From Cyanobacteriota bacterium (GTDB taxonomy: Bacteria > Cyanobacteriota > Vampirovibrionia > JBFMGH01): a stretch of DNA of 64,000 bases. Numbering within the stretch: the first letter of the stretch is position 1; every line of letters starts with the position of its first letter. The notes beneath the pieces are model-generated. The model was not told the DNA's origin, did no database searches, and saw nothing but the letters and a program-made list of their open reading frames with translations. A program made the position numbers and the translations under genes. Below, piece by piece: positions 18,474 through 35,022 of this stretch. Location: NCBI GenBank assembly GCA_040752795.1, contig JBFMGH010000608.1, forward strand, positions 110,325 through 174,324. The letters are read 5' to 3'.

Positions 18474-20438
18474 TTAGAGTCTTCTCATATCTTTATCAGC
18501 TATTATAAAAAGATTTATAAGGTCATCCAGCTCTTTAGCTCTTCTCTGATAATAACTTATATCATCTTCTAATTGTCTGATAAGTTGTTTCTGTTCTTCA
18601 ATTTTATTAATATTATCTTTCATATATTTTTGCAGTTTAGCTTGTGCGCCCTGAGCATCTGAAAGAACTTCAGACATTGAAATGCCCATTGCTTCCATAG
18701 TTTGCCTGATTATTTGAGCTCCGGTTTGTCTTGTAACACCTGGAGGCAAAGTAGAAACCAGTTTTATAAGAGTTTCAACATTTGAATTAAATAATTCTAC
18801 CCTTCTACGAGTGGCCCTTTCATCTCTTCTAGGATCAAAATCTCTATCTCTTGACATATCATTGTACGACCTGTCATCATATCTGTGATAATCTCTTGAT
18901 GAATCGTGATAAAGCCTATCATCATATCTGTGATAGTCGCGAGATGATTCCTGATAAGATCTATCATCATACCTGAGAGAATCTCTATGTGGTTCATGGT
19001 AAGATCTGTCATCGTGCTTGTTGTAACCTCTATCATCAGGTCTATAAGGTTCAGGATGTGTTTCACGATAGCCTCTATCATCAGGTCTATAAGGTTCAGA
19101 ATGTGTTTCACGATAGCCTCTATCATCAGGTCTATAAGGTTCAGGGTGTGTTTCACGATAGCCCCTATCATCAGGTCTATAAGGTTCAGGGTGTGTTTCA
19201 CGAGGCCTGTAGTGATCAGACTGATCTTGCGCATAATGTTTACGAGGTTCAGGTTGAGGTTCGTGATAGCTTCTATTGTCAGGTTTGTAAGGTTCAGGTT
19301 TAACAGGTGGAGATGTTATATGAGGATCCCTCTCTTGTGATACATTATAGTCTTTAGGCTGATATTGATCAAGATCTAAAGGAGACTTTGAAGGTTCTTG
19401 AGGTTTAGCATACTGTGGCTCAACTCCCGGGTGAATAGAGTCAAGATCAATAGTTCTTTGAGGTTCCTGTCTCCTAGGAATCTCTTCCCATTGCTGATTT
19501 TGATTCATTTGTTGTTGTGGGTATCCTATTTGAACTTCTTGTGGTTCATAACTATCGTAAGTCGACATTTCTTGCTTATGCGGTTGATATGGCTCAGGTT
19601 CATACTGCTCTGGTTCTAATTGTTGATTGTAATCATCCTCCTGATAGGAGTATTGATTATAACCAATATTTGCTTGAGCATGAGAAGCATGGGCAGGTTG
19701 TGGAGTATATTCCTGGTATTCCTGAGTCTCGTAAGGTTGATATTCTGTAAACTCCTGGGGATAATCTTCTGTTTCAGGAGGATCCACCTCTTCAAGTGCT
19801 GGCTGTTGTTGCATCTCTTGATAAGCTCTCCCCTGAGAATATCCTAATTGAGGGGGCTGATATTCTGGTACATCAGAATCATCTTCAAATTGTTGAATAT
19901 CATCACTAAAGTCATCATAAGATTGTTGATTGTAATTAAAATCATCTTGAGCCTGTTGCTCATATCTTTGAGGGTCAAAGCTTTGTGGATCATAAGATTG
20001 CTGATCATATGACGGCTGATCATATGATTGTTCATTGTAATCAATAGACATAGGGGTTTCTTCTGACATCATTTGTTCTTCAATTGGTGCAAAACTTCCG
20101 TATTGGGGAGTATCCGTAGTAGTAGTCATACCGTCTAGGTCAGGTAATTCTGAAGTCATTTCGGGCTGAAATTCAGTGGGTTCAAGAGGACCAGGTTCTT
20201 CATCATAGTGCATTTCTTGAGATCCAAAATCCATATGTGAAATAGTTTCCAGACCATGATTAGCATCAGGTTGATGAGCAGCATAAGGATCAACAGGTAC
20301 TTCTTGATAAGTTGATTGAGCAGCTGCTTGACCTGTTTGAACTTCAGGGTCTTGGGTTTTTAAAGCCTGAATGATTTTCTTACCTAATCCATCTGGAAGT
20401 TTACTTTGTCTTTTAGAATCCACTAATATGCTCTCCAA
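18474..20438 (-). CDS. Large intrinsically disordered Q/Y/D/P/E-rich repeat protein (654 aa) with a short structured C-terminal domain
   Basis: About 540 aa of low complexity (SYDQPSYDQQSYDPQSFDPQRYEQQ). Four or five tandem copies of ETHPEPYRPDDRGYR, then RYDDRSY..SSRDYH repeats. Ends with a ~110-aa non-repetitive, helical-looking domain (VELFNSNVETLIKLVSTLPPGVTRQTGAQIIRQTMEAMG...). Confidence 0.6.
   Translation of the reverse strand: MESILVDSKRQSKLPDGLGKKIIQALKTQDPEVQTGQAAAQSTYQEVPVDPYAAHQPDANHGLETISHMDFGSQEMHYDEEPGPLEPTEFQPEMTSELPDLDGMTTTTDTPQYGSFAPIEEQMMSEETPMSIDYNEQSYDQPSYDQQSYDPQSFDPQRYEQQAQDDFNYNQQSYDDFSDDIQQFEDDSDVPEYQPPQLGYSQGRAYQEMQQQPALEEVDPPETEDYPQEFTEYQPYETQEYQEYTPQPAHASHAQANIGYNQYSYQEDDYNQQLEPEQYEPEPYQPHKQEMSTYDSYEPQEVQIGYPQQQMNQNQQWEEIPRRQEPQRTIDLDSIHPGVEPQYAKPQEPSKSPLDLDQYQPKDYNVSQERDPHITSPPVKPEPYKPDNRSYHEPQPEPRKHYAQDQSDHYRPRETHPEPYRPDDRGYRETHPEPYRPDDRGYRETHSEPYRPDDRGYRETHPEPYRPDDRGYNKHDDRSYHEPHRDSLRYDDRSYQESSRDYHRYDDRLYHDSSRDYHRYDDRSYNDMSRDRDFDPRRDERATRRRVELFNSNVETLIKLVSTLPPGVTRQTGAQIIRQTMEAMGISMSEVLSDAQGAQAKLQKYMKDNINKIEEQKQLIRQLEDDISYYQRRAKELDDLINLFIIADKDMRRL
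18860..19210. repeat. Tandem 45-bp (15-codon) repeat array inside the disordered-protein gene
   Basis: Near-identical 45-bp units cctctatcatcaggtctataaggttcagRRtgtgtttcacgatag begin at 19027, 19072, 19117 and 19162. More diverged 45-bp units lie at 18862-19020. Confidence 0.8.
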
Positions 20439-22999: not shown

Positions 23000-23006
23000 A
23001 ATCAAT

Positions 23007-23031
23007 CACACCACCTCTAATGGGTGGTGTG
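23007..23031. terminator. Perfect 9-bp stem-loop (CACACCACC-TCTAATG-GGTGGTGTG) immediately after cdaA; probable terminator or RNA-stability hairpin without a strong U-tract
   Basis: Read directly from the sequence. 7-nt loop. Downstream is A-rich, not U-rich. Confidence 0.4.
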
Positions 23032-23703
23032 CTATTAAAAACGTGTTATTAATTTGTTTAACTTTTTAAATGGTTAAATTATCACGCACCTTTCGTGTCT
23101 TTACCAAGATATTACTAATATGCCCTGCTTGTTAAATTTTTAAACTTATTATATTAATGTTTGTTACAAAAAAGAATTTAGTCTGCATGTTTGTAGAATA
23201 CTCTTAGATTTTCGCCTTAACAAATTGTTGAACAATTGTCTTAATCTGTGTCATGCTTGACCAAAATTTGAAAACGCTTAATTGACCATATTGGTTGAAT
23301 TTCTAAAGTTAGTTCAAATTAGAAATCAAATATAATGTCATGTTTGACTTTTATAGTAAGTAACATTATTTATATTTAAGAAAAACAGGCGAAAAATTCC
23401 CCATAATCGGTACTTCAATGAGTTAAGAAGAAATATAAAGTAAATTTTATGAAACATTTTAGCAAAAATTTTTTTGCCTTGAACTTCTTATAAAATAAGA
23501 GTTTTAGTTCGTGAAATAAAAATTTTCAAAAAAACTTGTTTCATGTTTTTCTACTCCTGTTATAATTATTCTACTAAGAGTTTCACTACGAAGATTGTTG
23601 TGCTCATAGGATAATAGTATACAAACAAATGTGTAATCAATAAACAAGTTACTAGTCACCTTACAGGGTAACTAGGAGTGGATAAATACGTTTTTTTGAT
23701 GAT

Positions 23704-24297: not shown

Positions 24298-24323
24298 CCC
24301 CGGCATTTAGTCGGGGTTTTTTT
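24298..24323 (+). terminator. Rho-independent terminator of cobO
   Basis: CCCCGGcatttagtCGGGG followed by TTTTTTT. Confidence 0.7.
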
Positions 24324-24545: not shown

Positions 24546-25295
24546 ATGACTACTAAACAAACATCTTTATTTGAAACAGCAAAAGAAATAGTAATAGAAA
24601 CCCCCATAAGACACGTTGCTGTTATTATGGATGGTAATAGACGTTGGGCGAAAAAACATAATTTCATAAAAACAGTTGGACACGATAATGGTAGAAAAAC
24701 TTTTAAAAATATAGTTAAACATTCAGCAAAATTAAAACTACACTGTCTTACTACGTATGCTTTTTCAACTGAAAATTGGGGAAGAGACCCGGATGAAGTT
24801 AAATTTTTAATGGGCTTGTTGGTGGAATCTCTTAAAAACGAAATTAAAGAGCTTTGCGAGAATAATATAAGGCTTAGATTTATTGGTAGAAGAGATAGGC
24901 TAAATAAAGATGTGGTTAAAAAAATGGAAAATGCTGAAAATAGCACAGCTGAAAATACTGGCCTGATTCTTCAAATTGCCATTGATTACGGTAGCAGGTA
25001 TGAAATTACATATGCTTTAAGACAAATAACTCAAAAAGTCCAGAATGGTGAACTGTCTATTAATGATATAGATGAAAATCTTATTGGTTCTTGCCTGTAT
25101 ACTAGTACTGTTCCGGATCCAGACCTTATTATAAGAACTGGTGGGGAATACAGATTGAGTAATTACCTTCTATGGCAGGCTGCCTATAGTGAGTTATATA
25201 TAACAGACACTTTCTGGCCTGACTTTTTAGAGAATGAATTTGACATGGCTATAATAGATTTCAGTAAAAGACATAGAAGATGGGGAAAAGACTAA
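24546..25295 (+). CDS. uppS: Isoprenyl transferase (undecaprenyl diphosphate synthase)
   Basis: HVAVIMDGNRRWAKK, and the ...RTGGE.R.SN.LLWQ.AY.E... cis-prenyltransferase signature. Confidence 0.9.
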   Translation: MTTKQTSLFETAKEIVIETPIRHVAVIMDGNRRWAKKHNFIKTVGHDNGRKTFKNIVKHSAKLKLHCLTTYAFSTENWGRDPDEVKFLMGLLVESLKNEIKELCENNIRLRFIGRRDRLNKDVVKKMENAENSTAENTGLILQIAIDYGSRYEITYALRQITQKVQNGELSINDIDENLIGSCLYTSTVPDPDLIIRTGGEYRLSNYLLWQAAYSELYITDTFWPDFLENEFDMAIIDFSKRHRRWGKD

Positions 25296-25298
25296 AAA

Positions 25299-25880
25299 AT
25301 GCTGGATAAAATAGTATTTGCTTCTAAAAATAAGGGCAAAATACGCGAAGTTAAACAGCTTTTTTCTAATATAAATGTAGAAGTTTTACAGGTGCCCGAA
25401 GATTTTGATGTAATTGAGAATGGAGAAACTTTTCTTGATAATGCATTGATTAAAGCAAAAAAGGCAGTAGGCCTTACCAGACAGGTCTCACTAGCAGATG
25501 ATTCAGGATTAATGGTCGATGCTCTTAATGGTGAACCAGGTGTGCATTCTTCTCGTTATGCTGATACTGATATTGCTAGAATTAGTAAGTTGCTTAAAGC
25601 TTTAGAAGGAATACCATGCGATAAAAGAACTGCAAGATTTGTATGCTCTCTGGTTCTGGTTTCAACAAAAGGGGAAGTATTACATTCAACATCTGGTGTT
25701 TGTGAAGGTACAATCATTTTTGAACCAAGAGGTTCTGATGGCTTTGGCTTTGATCCTGTGTTTCTTGTGCCTGAATTGAATCTTACTATGGCTCAAATTC
25801 CCCTGGAACAAAAGAATACCCTGAGTCATAGAGCCAGGGCTTTTAACCAAATGCTCAAATGGATTTCTGTAAATAATTAG
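25299..25880 (+). CDS. rdgB: Non-canonical purine NTP pyrophosphatase (RdgB/HAM1 family)
   Basis: IVFASKNKGKIREV...ADDSGL.VDALNGEPGV.S.RYA...FGFDPVF. Confidence 0.9.
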   Translation: MLDKIVFASKNKGKIREVKQLFSNINVEVLQVPEDFDVIENGETFLDNALIKAKKAVGLTRQVSLADDSGLMVDALNGEPGVHSSRYADTDIARISKLLKALEGIPCDKRTARFVCSLVLVSTKGEVLHSTSGVCEGTIIFEPRGSDGFGFDPVFLVPELNLTMAQIPLEQKNTLSHRARAFNQMLKWISVNN

Positions 25881-25907
25881 TATATAGATATATAGAGAGG
25901 TTAGATT

Positions 25908-28900
25908 ATGGTTAGCATCTTTTTAAAATGGTTTAAATCTTTATTCATTTTATGTTTATTAGTAATGACTGCAAATAATTTTACTTATGCTTATGACAAC
26001 CTTTCTAAAGAAGAAAAAACGATTTTTTACTCTTCTAATATTCTTGGAGAATGCTCTTTTTTAATCTCAGATGTATTGTCTAATAGCCAGATCATGGGCG
26101 TTGCAAATTTAGATGCTAAACTGGAGTATGTTAAAAAGCAACTTACACTTGAACCTCCTCTTGTTGAAGATTTAAAAGTTTCTAAAAAAACATTACAAAC
26201 ACTAAAAAAATTTATTGAAGAAGTTAATGAATCCTATAATGAAAAGACATTTAAACTAAAAAAACTAGAACAGGCTAATAAAACTTTTGGCGATTATTCT
26301 GTAGAGCTAAGAGAAGACATTAATAAGTTGTATGGCCCTAAGTATACCTGGCTGTTTGATACAGGTTTCCTTGTTTCTTTTACCAAAGCTTCAATGATAT
26401 CAGATTATAAGAATAAACTTGTATTGTTAGAGTACAAATTTCTGCTTGATTATGTGCCCTATAATATGCCTACCAGTGTAATAAGCTCGTTATCATCTAT
26501 TGCTACTGTTAAAGATGAGGAATTAACACAAAATCAGGTAGAGATACTAAAAGAAGCATCTGATAATATGATATCTTACTTTACAAGCCCCGAGACATAT
26601 TCGCCACCGGCTACTTTAAGAGATCTTGTGGGGAAATGGGAAGGAAGACTGGCCCCTCCTAATGGAGATTATCATAAAGCAAATATTTCAATTACCCCAG
26701 ATATGAGTGCTATATTAAATGTTGAAGGCATGTTTAAAGATATGCCAGTGAATGACTTAACAGTAACTCAGAGTTTGGTTAGCTTTAATATTAAACCCTT
26801 TGCTGATGAACAGCTTATAATAAGATTTTCTGGAAGAATAGTCGATGATGTATTATCGGGCGAAGCTATTGATGTATCTGGTAAAAAAGGTTTATGGCAA
26901 TTTTTGAAAACCCCACAGGTTGATCTAAGTGAATTAGTTAATGCTGAAATAAAAACAGAACCAACAGCCCTTGATAAATTATCAGGTGTTTGGAAAGGTA
27001 AAATACTCGAACAAGATGGAGCAATATCTAATTTAACCCTTCGATTCAATATAGTTGATGATAGTGTGATGTTTGTTGAAAATCCTAACCATAAAAAGAC
27101 TCTTAAGCTTAATTCTGTAGCTGCTAATGATAAGGCAGTCAGGTTTAGCATTTCTCCTGATAATGGTGATATCAATATTACATTTATGGGTGAAATTAAG
27201 GGTAGAATATTAGAAGGGAATGCAATAGGAACAGATGGCAATAAGGCCTATTGGAAAATTATTAAAGTTGAAGATAAACTTACTAAGCCTCAATTAAAGA
27301 GTGATGCTGGTTTTTTTTTCTTGGATCATTTATGTGATCCTATTGTAGACAATTCCTTTATTGAAGGCTTCACGTTAGTTTCTAAAAATATAATTGTGCC
27401 GCCACCTAAAATTAATGAAGGCAAATATAAAGGCCATCTTATTTTTGAAGATGGCTCTAGGGCAGGGCTTGTTCTTGTTTTGTCTAATAAGCAGTCCAAG
27501 ATGTACCTTTTTAGCAAGGAGGATAACTCAAAAATATCTTTAGATATTGATTTAATGAATATTACAGATAGAGAAATAACAATAGATACAACAATAGATG
27601 GCAATAAAGATACTCTGGTTAAGTTTAAAGGCAAAGTTTTTGGAGGATATATTTATGGCGATGCTGTAAATATTGCTGGTGAAAATCTTAAATGGGAACT
27701 TATGGCTGTTGATAAAGCAGATACATTTTTAAGCAATGTTAATTCTTCAAATGTAAAAAGAATAAAAGGCTTATGGAATGGAATGGTGACCTTCTCTAAC
27801 TTGTTTGAGGTGCCTGTAAAACTTGTTATTTCAGATGATGAAACAAAAATGTACTTCGATGACGCAAAAATCTTACTAATATCAGATATTATTCTTGATG
27901 GGACATCGGTTAGCTTCGTTGCAAAGAATGAAGCTGATCCCATGCAAACCATAACCTTTAATGGCAACCTAGAAGAACAGAGTATAACTGGAAAAATAAC
28001 TACAGTTAATGGTCTGGGGCTTGATGTGGTGCTTTCTATGTCTGAAAAATATCAAGAAGATCCATTGAAAGGTATCTGGGCAGGGAGAATTATGCTAGAT
28101 AATGCTTCTGCTGATATTGTATTTGACTTTGTAGAAGATAAAAAGAAAGTTTATATTGATGACTCTAGAGCAGAATCAGGTAGAGTAGAACTATTAATAA
28201 GTAATTTAGTTAAAGATTCTAAAGGAATTAAATTTACAGCTAATACATCTAAAAGCCCTTCAAAAATTGAATTTGTTGGTACTTTTGATAGAGAACTTCT
28301 CAAAGGATCTGCAAAAAATCAGATACAGGGATCTAATAAACTTAATTGGGAAACTTCTAAATCTAATCTAAGTAAGTATGATCCCGAAAGTATTGAGATA
28401 GTATTACATTCTGAACCTGAAAATGCAGGGTATAAAAAAACGTTTTCTTTTCTTGATGAAATGGATAACCTTAATGACAGCAAAATAGATAATGAAACTA
28501 ATGATAAAGTTACTGAAAAAGAAGATAAAACAACTTCAACTATAGATAAAAAACCAGATGAAACTGAAATAAAAGAAAATAAAACAGATGAAATCCTTTC
28601 TCAAAAAGTGATAAATGCAGATGAGATAGATAAAACCAAACAAGATAAAAAAGATAAAGATGTTGATATTGATGAAAGTTCTTCAGAAAAAGAGATTACG
28701 AAAAAAAATGATAAAGAAAGTAAGATAGATAAAAAGATAAAAAAAGATAAATCTAAAAAATCAAGTGAAAATATCAATAAAGAGGAAAATAACAGATCTT
28801 CAGATAAGAAATCAAAGAAAACTAAAAAAACTAAATCTAAAAAAGAAAAACCTGACAAAGTAAAATCAGAAAAAGATACTAAAACAAAGGATAAAAGTAA

Positions 28901-29807
28901 ATCTGAAAAAGAAGATAAGTCTAAACAGTCTGAAGAAGAGAAAATGTCTGATAATAAAAAACCTTCGGATAAGAAATCAAAGAAAACTAAGAAAACTGAA
29001 TCTAAAAAAGAAAAACCTGACGAAATAAAGTCAGAAAAAGATACTAAAACAAAAGATAAAAATAAATCGGTAAAGGATGATCAATCTAAACAGCCTAAAG
29101 AAGAGAAAATATCTGATGAAGATCTGTTTGAAAAATCTAAAATTAAAAAGGCCAGAGAAAATTTAAATTCTGAAACACCTAAAACAGATAAATTAAAAGA
29201 AAAGAAAAAGGATAAGAAAAAAAGAAGATGGCCTTTTGGACGCAAGGACAAAGATAAAACACAAAAAAATAAGCAAAAAGAAGTCGATGTAATACAAGAA
29301 AATCCTGTTAAAGTTGAAGATAATACTGAAGTAATACAGGAAGAGACCTCTGATAAAGATGATAATAAAGAGGAAAATATAAAAAACCCTGAAGAAGATA
29401 AAAGCATTGAATCCAAAGATTTACAGATAAATACTGAAGATAAGCAAATAGAAGAATCTGATGAGATACAAGAATCTAAACAAGAAGATATGCAAGTAGC
29501 TATTGGAGATGAGCTTATTGGTAAATGGGTAGGAGAATTATTTAATCCTCAGGGTGATAAAGGGGAGATATTAATAGATCTTAAGAAATCTGATAGCTAT
29601 ATCTATGTTAATAAAGAAGGTGAAAAAGTTCCGTTTAAATTACTTGACTTAAAAATAAATGGTAAGAATATATATTTTAAAATAAAGCCATCACCTGATT
29701 CAGACTATGGCATAATATTTGATGGGTCTTTAATACAGGGAGTATTGTCCGGAACAGCAACTGACCCCACAGGCAACAAAGGCAAATGGCATGCGCAAAA
29801 GCCCTGA
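25908..29807 (+). CDS. Giant secreted modular protein (1299 aa): signal peptide, six ~95-aa GxWxG...GxKxxW modules, and a K/D/E-rich low-complexity spacer
   Basis: N-terminal signal (MVSIFLKWFKSLFILCLLVMTANNFTYA). Module starts: LVGKWEGRL, LSGVWKGKI, IKGLWNGMV, LKGIWAGRI, LIGKWVGEL, plus one degenerate. Each module ends G.A.D..G.K..W. The ~350-aa spacer is rich in K, D and E. Confidence 0.6.
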   Translation: MVSIFLKWFKSLFILCLLVMTANNFTYAYDNLSKEEKTIFYSSNILGECSFLISDVLSNSQIMGVANLDAKLEYVKKQLTLEPPLVEDLKVSKKTLQTLKKFIEEVNESYNEKTFKLKKLEQANKTFGDYSVELREDINKLYGPKYTWLFDTGFLVSFTKASMISDYKNKLVLLEYKFLLDYVPYNMPTSVISSLSSIATVKDEELTQNQVEILKEASDNMISYFTSPETYSPPATLRDLVGKWEGRLAPPNGDYHKANISITPDMSAILNVEGMFKDMPVNDLTVTQSLVSFNIKPFADEQLIIRFSGRIVDDVLSGEAIDVSGKKGLWQFLKTPQVDLSELVNAEIKTEPTALDKLSGVWKGKILEQDGAISNLTLRFNIVDDSVMFVENPNHKKTLKLNSVAANDKAVRFSISPDNGDINITFMGEIKGRILEGNAIGTDGNKAYWKIIKVEDKLTKPQLKSDAGFFFLDHLCDPIVDNSFIEGFTLVSKNIIVPPPKINEGKYKGHLIFEDGSRAGLVLVLSNKQSKMYLFSKEDNSKISLDIDLMNITDREITIDTTIDGNKDTLVKFKGKVFGGYIYGDAVNIAGENLKWELMAVDKADTFLSNVNSSNVKRIKGLWNGMVTFSNLFEVPVKLVISDDETKMYFDDAKILLISDIILDGTSVSFVAKNEADPMQTITFNGNLEEQSITGKITTVNGLGLDVVLSMSEKYQEDPLKGIWAGRIMLDNASADIVFDFVEDKKKVYIDDSRAESGRVELLISNLVKDSKGIKFTANTSKSPSKIEFVGTFDRELLKGSAKNQIQGSNKLNWETSKSNLSKYDPESIEIVLHSEPENAGYKKTFSFLDEMDNLNDSKIDNETNDKVTEKEDKTTSTIDKKPDETEIKENKTDEILSQKVINADEIDKTKQDKKDKDVDIDESSSEKEITKKNDKESKIDKKIKKDKSKKSSENINKEENNRSSDKKSKKTKKTKSKKEKPDKVKSEKDTKTKDKSKSEKEDKSKQSEEEKMSDNKKPSDKKSKKTKKTESKKEKPDEIKSEKDTKTKDKNKSVKDDQSKQPKEEKISDEDLFEKSKIKKARENLNSETPKTDKLKEKKKDKKKRRWPFGRKDKDKTQKNKQKEVDVIQENPVKVEDNTEVIQEETSDKDDNKEENIKNPEEDKSIESKDLQINTEDKQIEESDEIQESKQEDMQVAIGDELIGKWVGELFNPQGDKGEILIDLKKSDSYIYVNKEGEKVPFKLLDLKINGKNIYFKIKPSPDSDYGIIFDGSLIQGVLSGTATDPTGNKGKWHAQKP
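28804..29125. repeat. ~165-bp (55-codon) tandem duplication within the K/D/E-rich spacer of the giant protein
   Basis: Two near-identical DNA units encode SDKKSKKTKKTKSKKEKPDKVKSEKDTKTKDKSKSEKEDKSKQSEEEKMSD and SDKKSKKTKKTESKKEKPDEIKSEKDTKTKDKNKSVKDDQSKQPKEEKISD. Confidence 0.75.
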
Positions 29808-34356: not shown

Positions 34357-35022
34357 TTAGTGGTTAGATTTTGAAGGTGATGTGTTAAATATTGATGGGG
34401 TAGGACCAGAAATTTTTGTTGCGTTTAAATTGAAAAATGCCTGCTCAACACGAATTAATGTTTTTTTAAGAAAAAACTGAATCTCCATTACACTTACTCC
34501 GCTGAAATTATCACCATCTACAGTAATTGTAATCTTTTCAAATTGAGAAAACTTTCTATCAGGTGTTGTGTTAACAGTAAAAGTTGCCATATTATCTTTA
34601 ACTTCGTTGACAGTAATAAATGTTTCAGTCTGAGTATCTGGATTGGCTAACCGGATTTTTTTCTCTACTTGTTGGAGAATCCATATGTCACTGGTTTTTC
34701 TTTTAAATCTATAAGGAGCATTAGTGCTTAATAATGTACCTGATACTTGCCATGTGCCATACAATGCTGGAGGTAAATATTGAGCTTCAACAACATGGGC
34801 TTGAAAAGTAGGCTTATTAGGGTTGGAATACTCTGGCTTTGAATTTTCTTCGACCTCAGGTGGGTCATAAATTTTGGGGTTTGTATCTAATGCTGGTTCT
34901 TGGGCTAAAACCACAGGAATAACTATCAATAATAAAATTGATAAAAAGACGTTAACCAGTAACCGTAAAATCATCAAAATTGCCACTATATTGCTTTTTA
35001 AAAGTTTCAACTTGTGTAACAT
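34357..35022 (-). CDS. Hypothetical secreted or membrane-anchored protein
   Basis: N-terminal hydrophobic segment, then a Pro-rich linker and a ~150-aa domain. Start is uncertain: an alternative ATG at 34974 would reduce the overlap with acyP. Confidence 0.45.
   Translation of the reverse strand: MLHKLKLLKSNIVAILMILRLLVNVFLSILLLIVIPVVLAQEPALDTNPKIYDPPEVEENSKPEYSNPNKPTFQAHVVEAQYLPPALYGTWQVSGTLLSTNAPYRFKRKTSDIWILQQVEKKIRLANPDTQTETFITVNEVKDNMATFTVNTTPDRKFSQFEKITITVDGDNFSGVSVMEIQFFLKKTLIRVEQAFFNLNATKISGPTPSIFNTSPSKSNH

Follow-up and report, generated by a model that had tools for sequence, protein, structure and literature searches.

The protein encoded at 25908..29807 (+) of the 64,000-nucleotide window, i.e., the whole stretch of DNA analysed here, is best explained as an envelope protein, exported via Sec and specific to a Vampirovibrionia clade, that combines a helical head, six barrels and a tether in a non-enzymatic binding scaffold, an interpretation to which we give roughly even credence. 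The open reading frame starts with ATG and comprises 1299 aa, in exact agreement with the coordinates and length given by an earlier, sequence-only reading of this DNA, and the gene is real and conserved within a small group of Vampirovibrionia, which are non-photosynthetic relatives of cyanobacteria. Once the signal peptide is cleaved, the mature chain would consist of a helical head of ~200 aa, five calycin/streptavidin-type barrels of ~104 aa, a disordered tether, and a C-terminal sixth barrel. The head and modules M1–M5 would form the body of the protein, and M6, tied on by a flexible leash, would be able to contact or catch a distant partner. The product would act as a modular binding scaffold retained in the periplasm or on the surface of the cell, a role suggested by the architecture.

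A Shine-Dalgarno-like GAGAGG, read directly from the sequence, is located 7 nt 5' of the ATG (25895..25900, +). The first 28 residues (25908..25991, +) form a predicted signal peptide with a basic n-region (K7/K10) followed by a hydrophobic core and small residues at -1/-3, with cleavage predicted between TYA and YD. The assignment relies on the -3/-1 rule applied to the sequence and to the alignment of 12 orthologues, where an x-[FY/L]-A site occupies one shared alignment column in 12/12 cases. By these rules the n-, h- and c-regions of a type I Sec signal peptide are present and a lipobox Cys is not, which supports the export proposed earlier, and we infer that the gene product is exported. 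No lipoprotein, integral outer-membrane or cell-wall-anchor features were seen in the sequence. The Cys residues of the window protein are C16 in the signal peptide, the non-conserved C49, and C476 in a CDP motif (LCDP in the window protein; 27330..27341, +, aa 475–478) of the M2–M3 linker; C-D-P is invariant in 12/12 orthologues and contributes the sole conserved Cys of the mature protein. Rfam and tRNA scans returned nothing bearing on the gene.

A search among relatives recovered 12 orthologue clusters, the only ones with the full architecture (200-aa helical bundle, five barrels, tether, sixth barrel), and a scan of GTDB genomes returned one locus. The window protein is known from one contig, and its A+T-rich, Lys-codon-rich spacer is of a kind in which assembly errors can occur, both of which would favor an ORF arising by chance or an artefact of assembly that joins unrelated pieces through a low-complexity stretch. 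This explanation is effectively refuted by the 12 clusters, in which the N-domain, the barrels and the spacer are all kept and the last barrel stays in frame, by the Shine-Dalgarno-like sequence ahead of the start codon, and by orthologue P0006, which is identical on 17 contigs (ENA, JGI, NCBI, Logan), so that the long ORF is no assembly accident.

The N-terminal domain (25992..26603, +, aa 29–232) is an all-α helical bundle of ~200 aa. A Pfam scan of this domain gave nothing meaningful, and its profile had no significant match among PDB sequences; matches to PDCD10 and Spc25 (E 0.005–0.03) involved helical stretches only and were discarded. The domain, like the architecture as a whole, is a lineage-restricted part.

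The six modules, all on the + strand, are encoded at 26604..26915 (M1, aa 233–336), 26958..27272 (M2, aa 351–455), 27393..27713 (M3, aa 496–602), 27741..28046 (M4, aa 612–713), 28044..28367 (M5, aa 713–820) and 29493..29807 (M6, aa 1196–1299 plus the stop codon). They are homologous, as a profile built from the module-6 orthologues of other genomes alone detects all five remaining modules. Pairwise identity between modules of the window protein is 12–37%, with M1 being nearest to M6 (37%). Across orthologues, M1 is the best-conserved module (58% mean identity), followed by M2 (50%), while M4 has the lowest identity (28%) and M5 is missing in 3/12 orthologues. The modules are ~102–108 aa long (~104) and lie 101–145 aa apart, which replaces the ~95-aa period proposed earlier. 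The GxWxG start attributed to all six repeats is present in five, M3 having GKYKG instead; G-x-W itself, with Tyr for Trp in M3, is nearly invariant in 53 orthologue and 44 distant modules. The proposed end motif, GxAxDxxGxKxxW, occurs literally in 3/6 modules and fails in the others, M4 lacking the terminal Trp; the module-end pattern found here is F-x-G...G...G...W-x-x-x-K. In most modules the last strand is followed by a basic residue (consensus WxxxK; 'R' in distant members), and the residues invariant across modules family-wide are Gly, Trp and Phe only, which look structural.

One module, M6, was modeled with AlphaFold2 and yielded a confident (pLDDT 92) eight-stranded antiparallel barrel with up-and-down (+1) topology; the assignment of this fold to the other five modules is based on homology. 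According to DSSP, a helical turn at residues 6–8 precedes strand 1, which carries G10-K-W12, as in calycins, whose barrels have eight to ten strands and a conserved Arg or Lys on the last strand that packs over the motif Trp. The top structural matches of the model in the PDB are designed Trp-corner barrels and quinohemoprotein amine dehydrogenase α-subunit barrels, together with avidins, FABPs and lipocalin-like proteins. Since these best matches are eight-stranded barrels, the lipocalin/calycin-like assignment made from sequence was correct at the fold level. GxW is known in designed barrels and lipocalins as the 'tryptophan corner', a folding motif at the barrel bottom (PMC9601869). In the present modules GxWxG is most likely a folding motif rather than a functional, catalytic or ligand site, and would close the barrel bottom together with the module-end pattern.

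A profile of the module matched 882 cluster representatives at E<=1e-3 (181 at <=1e-10). By sequence comparison, the module belongs to a large uncurated tandem-barrel family and is thus no orphan. This tandem Trp-corner barrel family is defined by our profile and has no published definition; the window protein fits it by virtue of a full ~100-aa module match, several copies, and a signal peptide ahead of them. The listed profile matches mostly have 3–4 matched stretches within 310–470 aa, nearly all 51 inspected relatives (P0010–P0060) have signal-peptide-like N-termini, and wherever a source names the cluster of a distant relative, the name is 'hypothetical protein'. The window protein would have arisen when a module that is widely found as 3–4 tandem copies in signal-peptide-bearing, uncharacterised bacterial proteins was duplicated internally. 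In distant members, the module is fused to a TonB C-terminal domain (P0139) or to a POTRA/ShlB outer-membrane transporter (P0105), and some 4-module relatives adjoin MacB-type double-FtsX ABC permeases. Pfam gave nothing meaningful for the whole protein, each window module or 53 orthologue modules, NCBIfam gave no match for the window protein, and no enzyme-like family match was returned by either anywhere in the protein; PDB sequence searches with a 6-module profile and a 44-module broad profile gave no significant match. The earlier suggestion of an undescribed family therefore stands as regards Pfam and NCBIfam coverage, but not as regards isolation, given the recurrence of the module in the cluster representatives above.

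The gene is preceded by uppS (24546..25295, +; Pfam Prenyltransf, E 6e-82) and rdgB/Ham1 (25299..25880, +; Pfam Ham1p_like, E 3e-60), with gaps of 3 nt between uppS and rdgB and 27 nt between rdgB and the gene. A strong terminator-like hairpin (24298–24316) lies ahead of uppS, and none was found between uppS, rdgB and the barrel gene; the gene order, gaps and hairpin suggest that the three genes probably share a single transcript. Consensus promoter matches were fewer than in shuffled sequence (31 vs 40.6), and no promoter is therefore claimed. The gene sits downstream of uppS-rdgB in 7/7 related loci (L001–L007; six metagenome contigs and one genome contig), and the order uppS-rdgB-X-<relA is kept, the most divergent orthologues included. 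This adjacency to uppS may be mere inheritance of gene order inside one clade. A long shot, in our estimate, is the broader proposal that the ~100-aa Trp-corner barrel is an unrecognised, widespread periplasmic module for handling ligands or partners, and that the specialised six-barrel version, co-expressed with UppS, ferries or passes on a hydrophobic envelope precursor; its cargo would be, for example, a polyprenyl-linked intermediate or a lipid, and its evolvable, disordered leash would let the terminal barrel act by 'fly-casting'.

Small-ligand binding is frequent among barrels of this fold, examples being streptavidin, FABP, nitrobindin and designed fluorogen binders. Each barrel of a poly-lipocalin carrier, which is essentially the idea of the sequence-only reading, would enclose a hydrophobic small molecule, e.g., a lipid, an isoprenoid (undecaprenyl derivatives), a quinone, heme or a pigment, that is buffered or shuttled across the periplasm. 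We consider such a carrier unlikely, as the modules showed no conserved polar/aromatic pocket signature apart from Gly, Trp and Phe, which look structural, and the modules diverge strongly, both from one another and, in M4, among orthologues. Moreover, ~104 aa places the module among the smallest barrels of its class, the lipocalin C-terminal helix is absent, and gene order shared inside a single clade says little about function.

The spacer between M5 and M6 (28368..29492, +, aa 821–1195) is the K/E/D-rich polyampholyte described earlier, with a length of 375 aa rather than ~350 aa. Its composition (K 26%, E 15%, D 13%) gives a net charge of about 0 and a charged fraction of 0.55, and because its normalised hydropathy (0.274) lies below the charge-hydropathy boundary (0.414) it is predicted to be disordered; its charges are mixed to the same degree as in shuffled sequence. 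Acidic-basic-acidic charge blocks in the window spacer were dropped as a functional feature because orthologues do not conserve them. The spacer contains the 165-bp (55-codon) tandem duplication (28798..29129, +, two copies), which is real but not near-perfect as had been claimed, the copies being 84–89% identical. TRF reports 28798–29117 with period 165, 1.9 copies, 89% matches and a score of 521, and in codon phase the copies at 28800–28964 and 28965–29129 differ at 26/165 nt (84% identical), and therefore do not reflect a collapsed or expanded repeat; they share 41/55 aa, with 14 non-synonymous vs 6 synonymous codon changes.

Among orthologues, the spacers vary in length between 37 aa, in P0012, and 375 aa, and in net charge between -17 and +17, and they are unalignable except for two short islands. 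The first, FSFLDE (28443..28460, +, aa 846–851), lies about 25 aa past M5 and is present in 8/12 orthologues, all eight of which have M5. The second, KISDEDLFEKSKIKKARENLNSE (29106..29174, +, aa 1067–1089), reaches into the end of the second copy of the duplication and may represent a short helix or a linear motif; its motif HMM scores 31–37 bits in 7/12 orthologues. Of two fragments, P0019, outside the training set, scores 26.8 bits, and P0021, a training instance, also matches. Repeats have expanded independently in the spacers of the window protein (55 aa x2), P0002 (42 aa x5-6) and P0007 (37 aa x2), and the leash would drift freely in length via tandem duplication and deletion.

A long, hydrophilic and predictedly disordered spacer flanked by folded domains is also what would be expected of an envelope-spanning tether that, by analogy with TonB, TolA and LpoA/LpoB, bridges the periplasm with the body at one layer and M6 at another, and the fusions in P0139 and P0105 are in line with this. 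We nevertheless judge such a tether decidedly unlikely: the tenfold range of spacer lengths suits a distance-setting element poorly, the presumably cleaved signal peptide is the only membrane anchor, and peptidoglycan-binding and outer-membrane-insertion domains were not found. Fast evolution, repeat expansion and module loss are common traits of surface proteins, and all three apply here, with 39–47% identity for the barrel protein vs 63–89% for its neighbors, i.e., much faster evolution, lineage-specific repeat expansions, and three orthologues that have lost an entire module. A secreted or surface adhesin or matrix protein, with the barrels as a beads-on-a-string stalk whose rapid evolution would be driven by hosts, prey or phages, is still quite improbable in our view, since no autotransporter, two-partner secretion (TPS) or secretion-type C-terminal domain and no lipobox was seen in the sequence, M6 is merely another barrel, and modules of this family otherwise occur in small, periplasmic-looking proteins.

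If the description given here holds, the module defines a domain family of >880 sequence clusters that is absent from Pfam and NCBIfam, is without a solved structure, and resembles in its fold the 'ideal' eight-stranded barrels at which protein design arrived independently. The spacer would provide a clean natural case of a disordered linker varying tenfold within one clade by independent tandem duplications, and the gene would serve as a lineage marker for a Vampirovibrionia subclade. The parts are of known kinds and current understanding is not overturned; the result is a well-characterised hypothetical protein, not a new system.

The periplasmic charged or Pro-rich linkers of TonB, TolA (domain II) and LpoA/LpoB are long, hydrophilic and of low complexity, and keep the folded domains of an exported protein apart. 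The spacer shares these properties and its position between folded domains, but has well-mixed K/E/D/S/T instead of Pro-Glu/Pro-Lys or Ala-rich helical patterns; it also differs in length between orthologues (37–375 aa) and lacks a membrane anchor. With respect to the modules, TIGR03067 and TIGR03066 are uncharacterised paralogous ~107-aa domains of Planctomycetes and Gemmata in the same length class. Distant members match them with E 7e-9 to 2e-6, at 28–36 bits and hence below the cut-offs of 40 (40.15 for TIGR03067) and 93, and the members that were inspected have signal-peptide-like N-termini; the window protein matches neither model, and a literature search found no mention of TIGR03067. 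The quinohemoprotein amine dehydrogenase α-subunit barrels (1pby_A, 1jju_A, 1jmx_A) have no significant sequence relationship to the module, and the window protein differs from that enzyme in having neither a di-heme cytochrome domain nor partner subunits near the gene; as those barrels form a structural shell, they have little bearing on its function. The designed Trp-corner barrels, with a ligand pocket engineered into the top half, are artificial and only 8–15% identical to the module, and the likeness is therefore convergence on the ideal barrel, not homology.

Avidin/streptavidin membership, which calls for a family HMM match and the biotin-binding residues, finds no support. Pfam GXWXG (PF14231) did not reach its gathering score, a single module of 53 giving E 0.15 and the others nothing, and the shared motif name is a coincidence arising from the common Trp corner. 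True lipocalins have 160–180 aa, a deep ligand calyx and a C-terminal helix packed on the barrel, whereas the module has ~104 aa and, in the model, no helix past the last strand; neither the whole protein nor any of the 53 modules matched kernel lipocalins (PF00061 type) in Pfam at E<=1 to 10. The calycin/lipocalin-like domains Lipocalin_4 (PF13648), GH43_C (PF16369), Calycin_like (PF13944) and HepII_C (PF18675) have the same 8-stranded up-and-down antiparallel barrel and share with the module a short helical turn, a G-x-W on the N-terminal strand, and a basic residue past the last strand. These four models match 0/53 orthologue modules, even at E<=1, and distant members give matches that range from sub-threshold to significant (GH43_C in 10/111, best E 2e-9; Lipocalin_4 in 7; HepII_C in 5; Calycin_like, E 6e-9). 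Unlike these calycin relatives, the window protein has six copies of the barrel in one chain, joined to a helical head and to a disordered tether.

The ORF at 25908..29807 on the + strand is uninterrupted, opens with an ATG that has a Shine-Dalgarno-like GAGAGG 7 nt on its 5' side, and comprises 1299 codons within a window that is uniformly A+T-rich (29–37% G+C). Residues 1–820 of the product, taken as a query, retrieved its own entry (NCBI MAG, 'Cyanobacteriota bacterium', AB1782_19650) together with eight relatives that match along the whole query at 37–50% identity; one of these is labelled Vampirovibrionia, and a profile search brought in three further orthologues. The sequence-only reading had proposed a look for the same gene in related organisms, and this yielded 12 orthologues, including the window protein, all with the same domain plan except that the fifth of the six modules (M5) is missing from three. 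Between genomes the protein is 39–47% identical, compared with 63–89% for the products of neighbouring genes, and it is on this ground that the gene is described as fast-evolving. It is a real and conserved gene, encoding a helical head (residues 29–232), five barrels, a tether predicted to be disordered, and a sixth barrel; that it should be an artefact is scarcely conceivable.

Motif searches combined with alignment place the modules at residues 233–336 (M1), 351–455 (M2), 496–602 (M3), 612–713 (M4), 713–820 (M5) and 1196–1299 (M6). Because pairwise identity among the six is only 12–37%, the repeat was examined in a non-circular manner, i.e., an HMM was built for each module from the orthologues of other genomes and run on the window protein. 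With the HMM for module 6, M1–M5 are matched at independent E-values of 1e-20 to 2e-7; the HMMs for the other five modules do the same, except that the one for module 1 misses M5. At the sequence level, the sixfold repeat is real. The start motif G-x-W-x-G proposed from sequence inspection is present in five modules, but M3 has Tyr for Trp; similarly, the long end motif occurs to the letter in three modules, but its terminal Trp is missing from M4. The residues invariant across all modules are G10, (W12), G14, F62, F76, G78 and G87 in module numbering. Among the orthologues, identity is highest for M1 (58%), M2 (50%) and M6 (46%), and lowest for M4 (28%).

The structure of M6 was predicted using an alignment of 53 modules from nine orthologues, and the resulting model is confident (mean pLDDT 92.2, pTM 0.83), with a short helical turn that leads into an unbroken meander of β-strands. 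As modeled, the module is a small calycin/streptavidin-type barrel, which bears out the calycin-like fold guessed from the start motif. The top structural matches are designed barrels, for which a 'tryptophan corner folding motif' in the bottom half near the termini has been described with reference to the lipocalin folding signature (PMC9601869). On the strength of this tryptophan corner and of the invariant module residues, we read GxWxG as a folding signature and not as a functional site. Pfam and NCBIfam gave no match for the window protein or its modules, and profile searches found no solved structure. That the protein serves as a small-ligand carrier is a reading we consider unlikely.

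The N-terminus of the window protein (MVSIFLKWFKSLFILCLLVMTANNFTYA followed by YD) displays all three regions expected of a type I signal peptide, and an Ala occupies the same alignment column in all 12 orthologues, after which the conserved mature sequence begins; no conserved lipobox was found at the N-termini of the window protein and the orthologues inspected. By rule, and from these signal-peptide features only, we infer Sec export. A C-D-P motif in the M2–M3 linker is invariant in 12 of 12 orthologues (LCDP in the window protein, residues 475–478, positions 27330–27341), and apart from its Cys476 no cysteine of the mature protein is conserved. A conserved cysteine without a partner is, in a putatively exported protein, suggestive of an intermolecular disulfide or of covalent attachment. 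A role as a surface adhesin appears quite improbable.

Residues 821–1195, between M5 and M6, form a 375-residue spacer rich in Lys (26%), Glu (15%) and Asp (13%). Charged residues make up a fraction of 0.55 of it, its net charge is zero, its hydropathy is very low (0.274, the boundary being 0.414), and its charge mixing cannot be told from that of shuffled sequence; an expanded, disordered polyampholyte is predicted on these grounds. Among the 12 orthologues, spacer length varies from 37 to 375 residues and net charge from −17 to +17, and the window spacer's acidic-basic-acidic block pattern is not conserved. The 165-bp tandem duplication noted earlier is clear (period 165 bp, 1.9 copies, 89% matches), but it is not near-perfect as had been claimed: in codon phase the copies differ at 26 of 165 nucleotides and 14 of 55 residues. 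The 14 non-synonymous as against 6 synonymous codon differences fit weak constraint on the exact spacer sequence. Independent, unrelated tandem repeats occur in three lineages, i.e., 55 aa ×2 in the window protein, 42 aa ×5–6 at near identity in orthologue P0002 (residues ~926–1135), and 37 aa ×2 in orthologue P0007 (residues ~950–1025), from which it follows that repeat expansion of the linker is recurrent and lineage-specific. Two short conserved islands stand out within the spacer: FSFLDE, ~25 residues past M5, in 8 of 12 orthologues, and a ~22-residue motif, [ST]-D-E-x-[LM]-[FY]-x-K...K-[AS], in 7 of 12 orthologues and two gene fragments, of which P0019 was left out of training of the motif model while the other is not independent. 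Both islands may be docking motifs.

An envelope-spanning tether is a rather improbable alternative. The reading we favor, to which we give about an even chance, is that the protein is exported by Sec and would reside in the periplasm or at the surface, where it would act as a non-enzymatic binding scaffold whose disordered tether lets M6 reach a partner.

On its 5' side the gene is preceded by lysA, cdaA, a ~700-bp ORF-free stretch, cobO, a strong terminator-like hairpin (24298–24316), uppS and rdgB/Ham1, and relA/spoT converges on it from the opposite side. With gaps of only 3 and 27 nt in the series uppS, rdgB/Ham1 and the window gene, these three are likely co-transcribed. All related loci with contigs reaching that far preserve the order uppS-rdgB-gene-<relA, even that of the most divergent orthologue (L004), in which the upstream region differs; the short contig L006 retains uppS-rdgB-gene and is cut off beyond it. 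The link to uppS may be one of inheritance only. In L004 (2548–3402) a flagellin gene lies two genes 5' of the conserved cobO-uppS-rdgB-gene block, with an AMIN-domain protein between, which fits a motile diderm lifestyle for the clade. Locus L007 (CAZFBA010000008.1, 723–11500) belongs to a GTDB genome contig titled 'uncultured Gammaproteobacteria bacterium' with ~36% G+C. Its ORF sizes, order and orientation match the lysA-cdaA-cobO-uppS-rdgB-gene-<relA series of Vampirovibrionia-type loci, and a 1111-aa ORF at the position of the gene holds a match to the N-terminal head domain (48% identity); the taxonomic label is probably wrong.

The stretch between cdaA and cobO (23000–23703) contains no ORF of more than 64 aa, and no gene is called there in any related locus. 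A terminator-like hairpin lies directly 3' of cdaA, and the stretch holds conserved blocks, e.g., GTTCAAATTAGAAATCA, AAGAAGAAATATAAAGTAAATTTT and TTATAATTATTCTACT, some of which are kept even in L004, whose upstream gene differs. Rfam returned no match at E ≤ 1, and the stretch may represent a regulatory region or a non-coding RNA, as yet undescribed, 5' of cobO. Two ORFs without Pfam matches, of 654 aa (18474..20438, − strand) and 221 aa (34357..35022, − strand), are further lineage-specific unknowns adjoining housekeeping genes; at corresponding positions in loci L001 and L003 there are gene calls of 629–630 aa for the former and, less similar in size, of 181 and 208 aa for the latter, again without Pfam matches.

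A profile of the 53 modules, searched against 1.84 billion cluster representatives, matches 882 proteins at E ≤ 1e-3, 181 at ≤ 1e-10 and 11 at ≤ 1e-30. The sequence-only reading, which recognized no described family in the architecture, is half right: novelty can be claimed for the architecture and for the head domain, but not for the module. The typical non-orthologous match has 310–470 residues with three or four matched stretches, a signal-peptide-like N-terminus is found in nearly all of the 51 matches inspected in this respect, and distant matches are named 'hypothetical protein' wherever the source gives a name. The family to which the module belongs is large and uncurated; to have defined it, as a family of barrels with hundreds of members and no solved structure, is the most useful by-product of the analysis.

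Two distant four-module relatives of the 'D..GTWQGKL' subtype, P0023 and P0030, have MacB-type neighbors (loci L008, 2859–7341, and L012, 2790–6775). An ABC ATPase and an 809-aa double MacB_PCD/FtsX permease are encoded 28 bp upstream of P0023, and P0030 adjoins an 803-aa double MacB_PCD/FtsX permease and a DUF3471 (lipocalin-like) protein; no such neighborhood surrounds the relative P0017, so that the association holds in two of three cases with usable context. Tandem-barrel proteins may be recurrently linked to MacB-type ABC systems; no MacB-type transporter was found among the annotated genes near the window gene (about 18.5–35 kb). Occasional fusions of the module in distant matches, with POTRA/ShlB, with TonB_C, and with a penicillin-amidase fragment and DUF4440, point to the cell envelope. 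Most of the 111 distant matches scanned carry no Pfam family; a minority hit models of lipocalin-like or calycin-like type, namely GH43_C (10, best 2e-9), Lipocalin_4 (7), HepII_C (5) and Calycin_like (2). P0015, scanned separately, matches Calycin_like at 6e-9, and some distant matches score below threshold with NCBIfam TIGR03067 or TIGR03066. These minority matches provide a transitive sequence link of the module to the calycin clan, in agreement with the predicted barrel fold.
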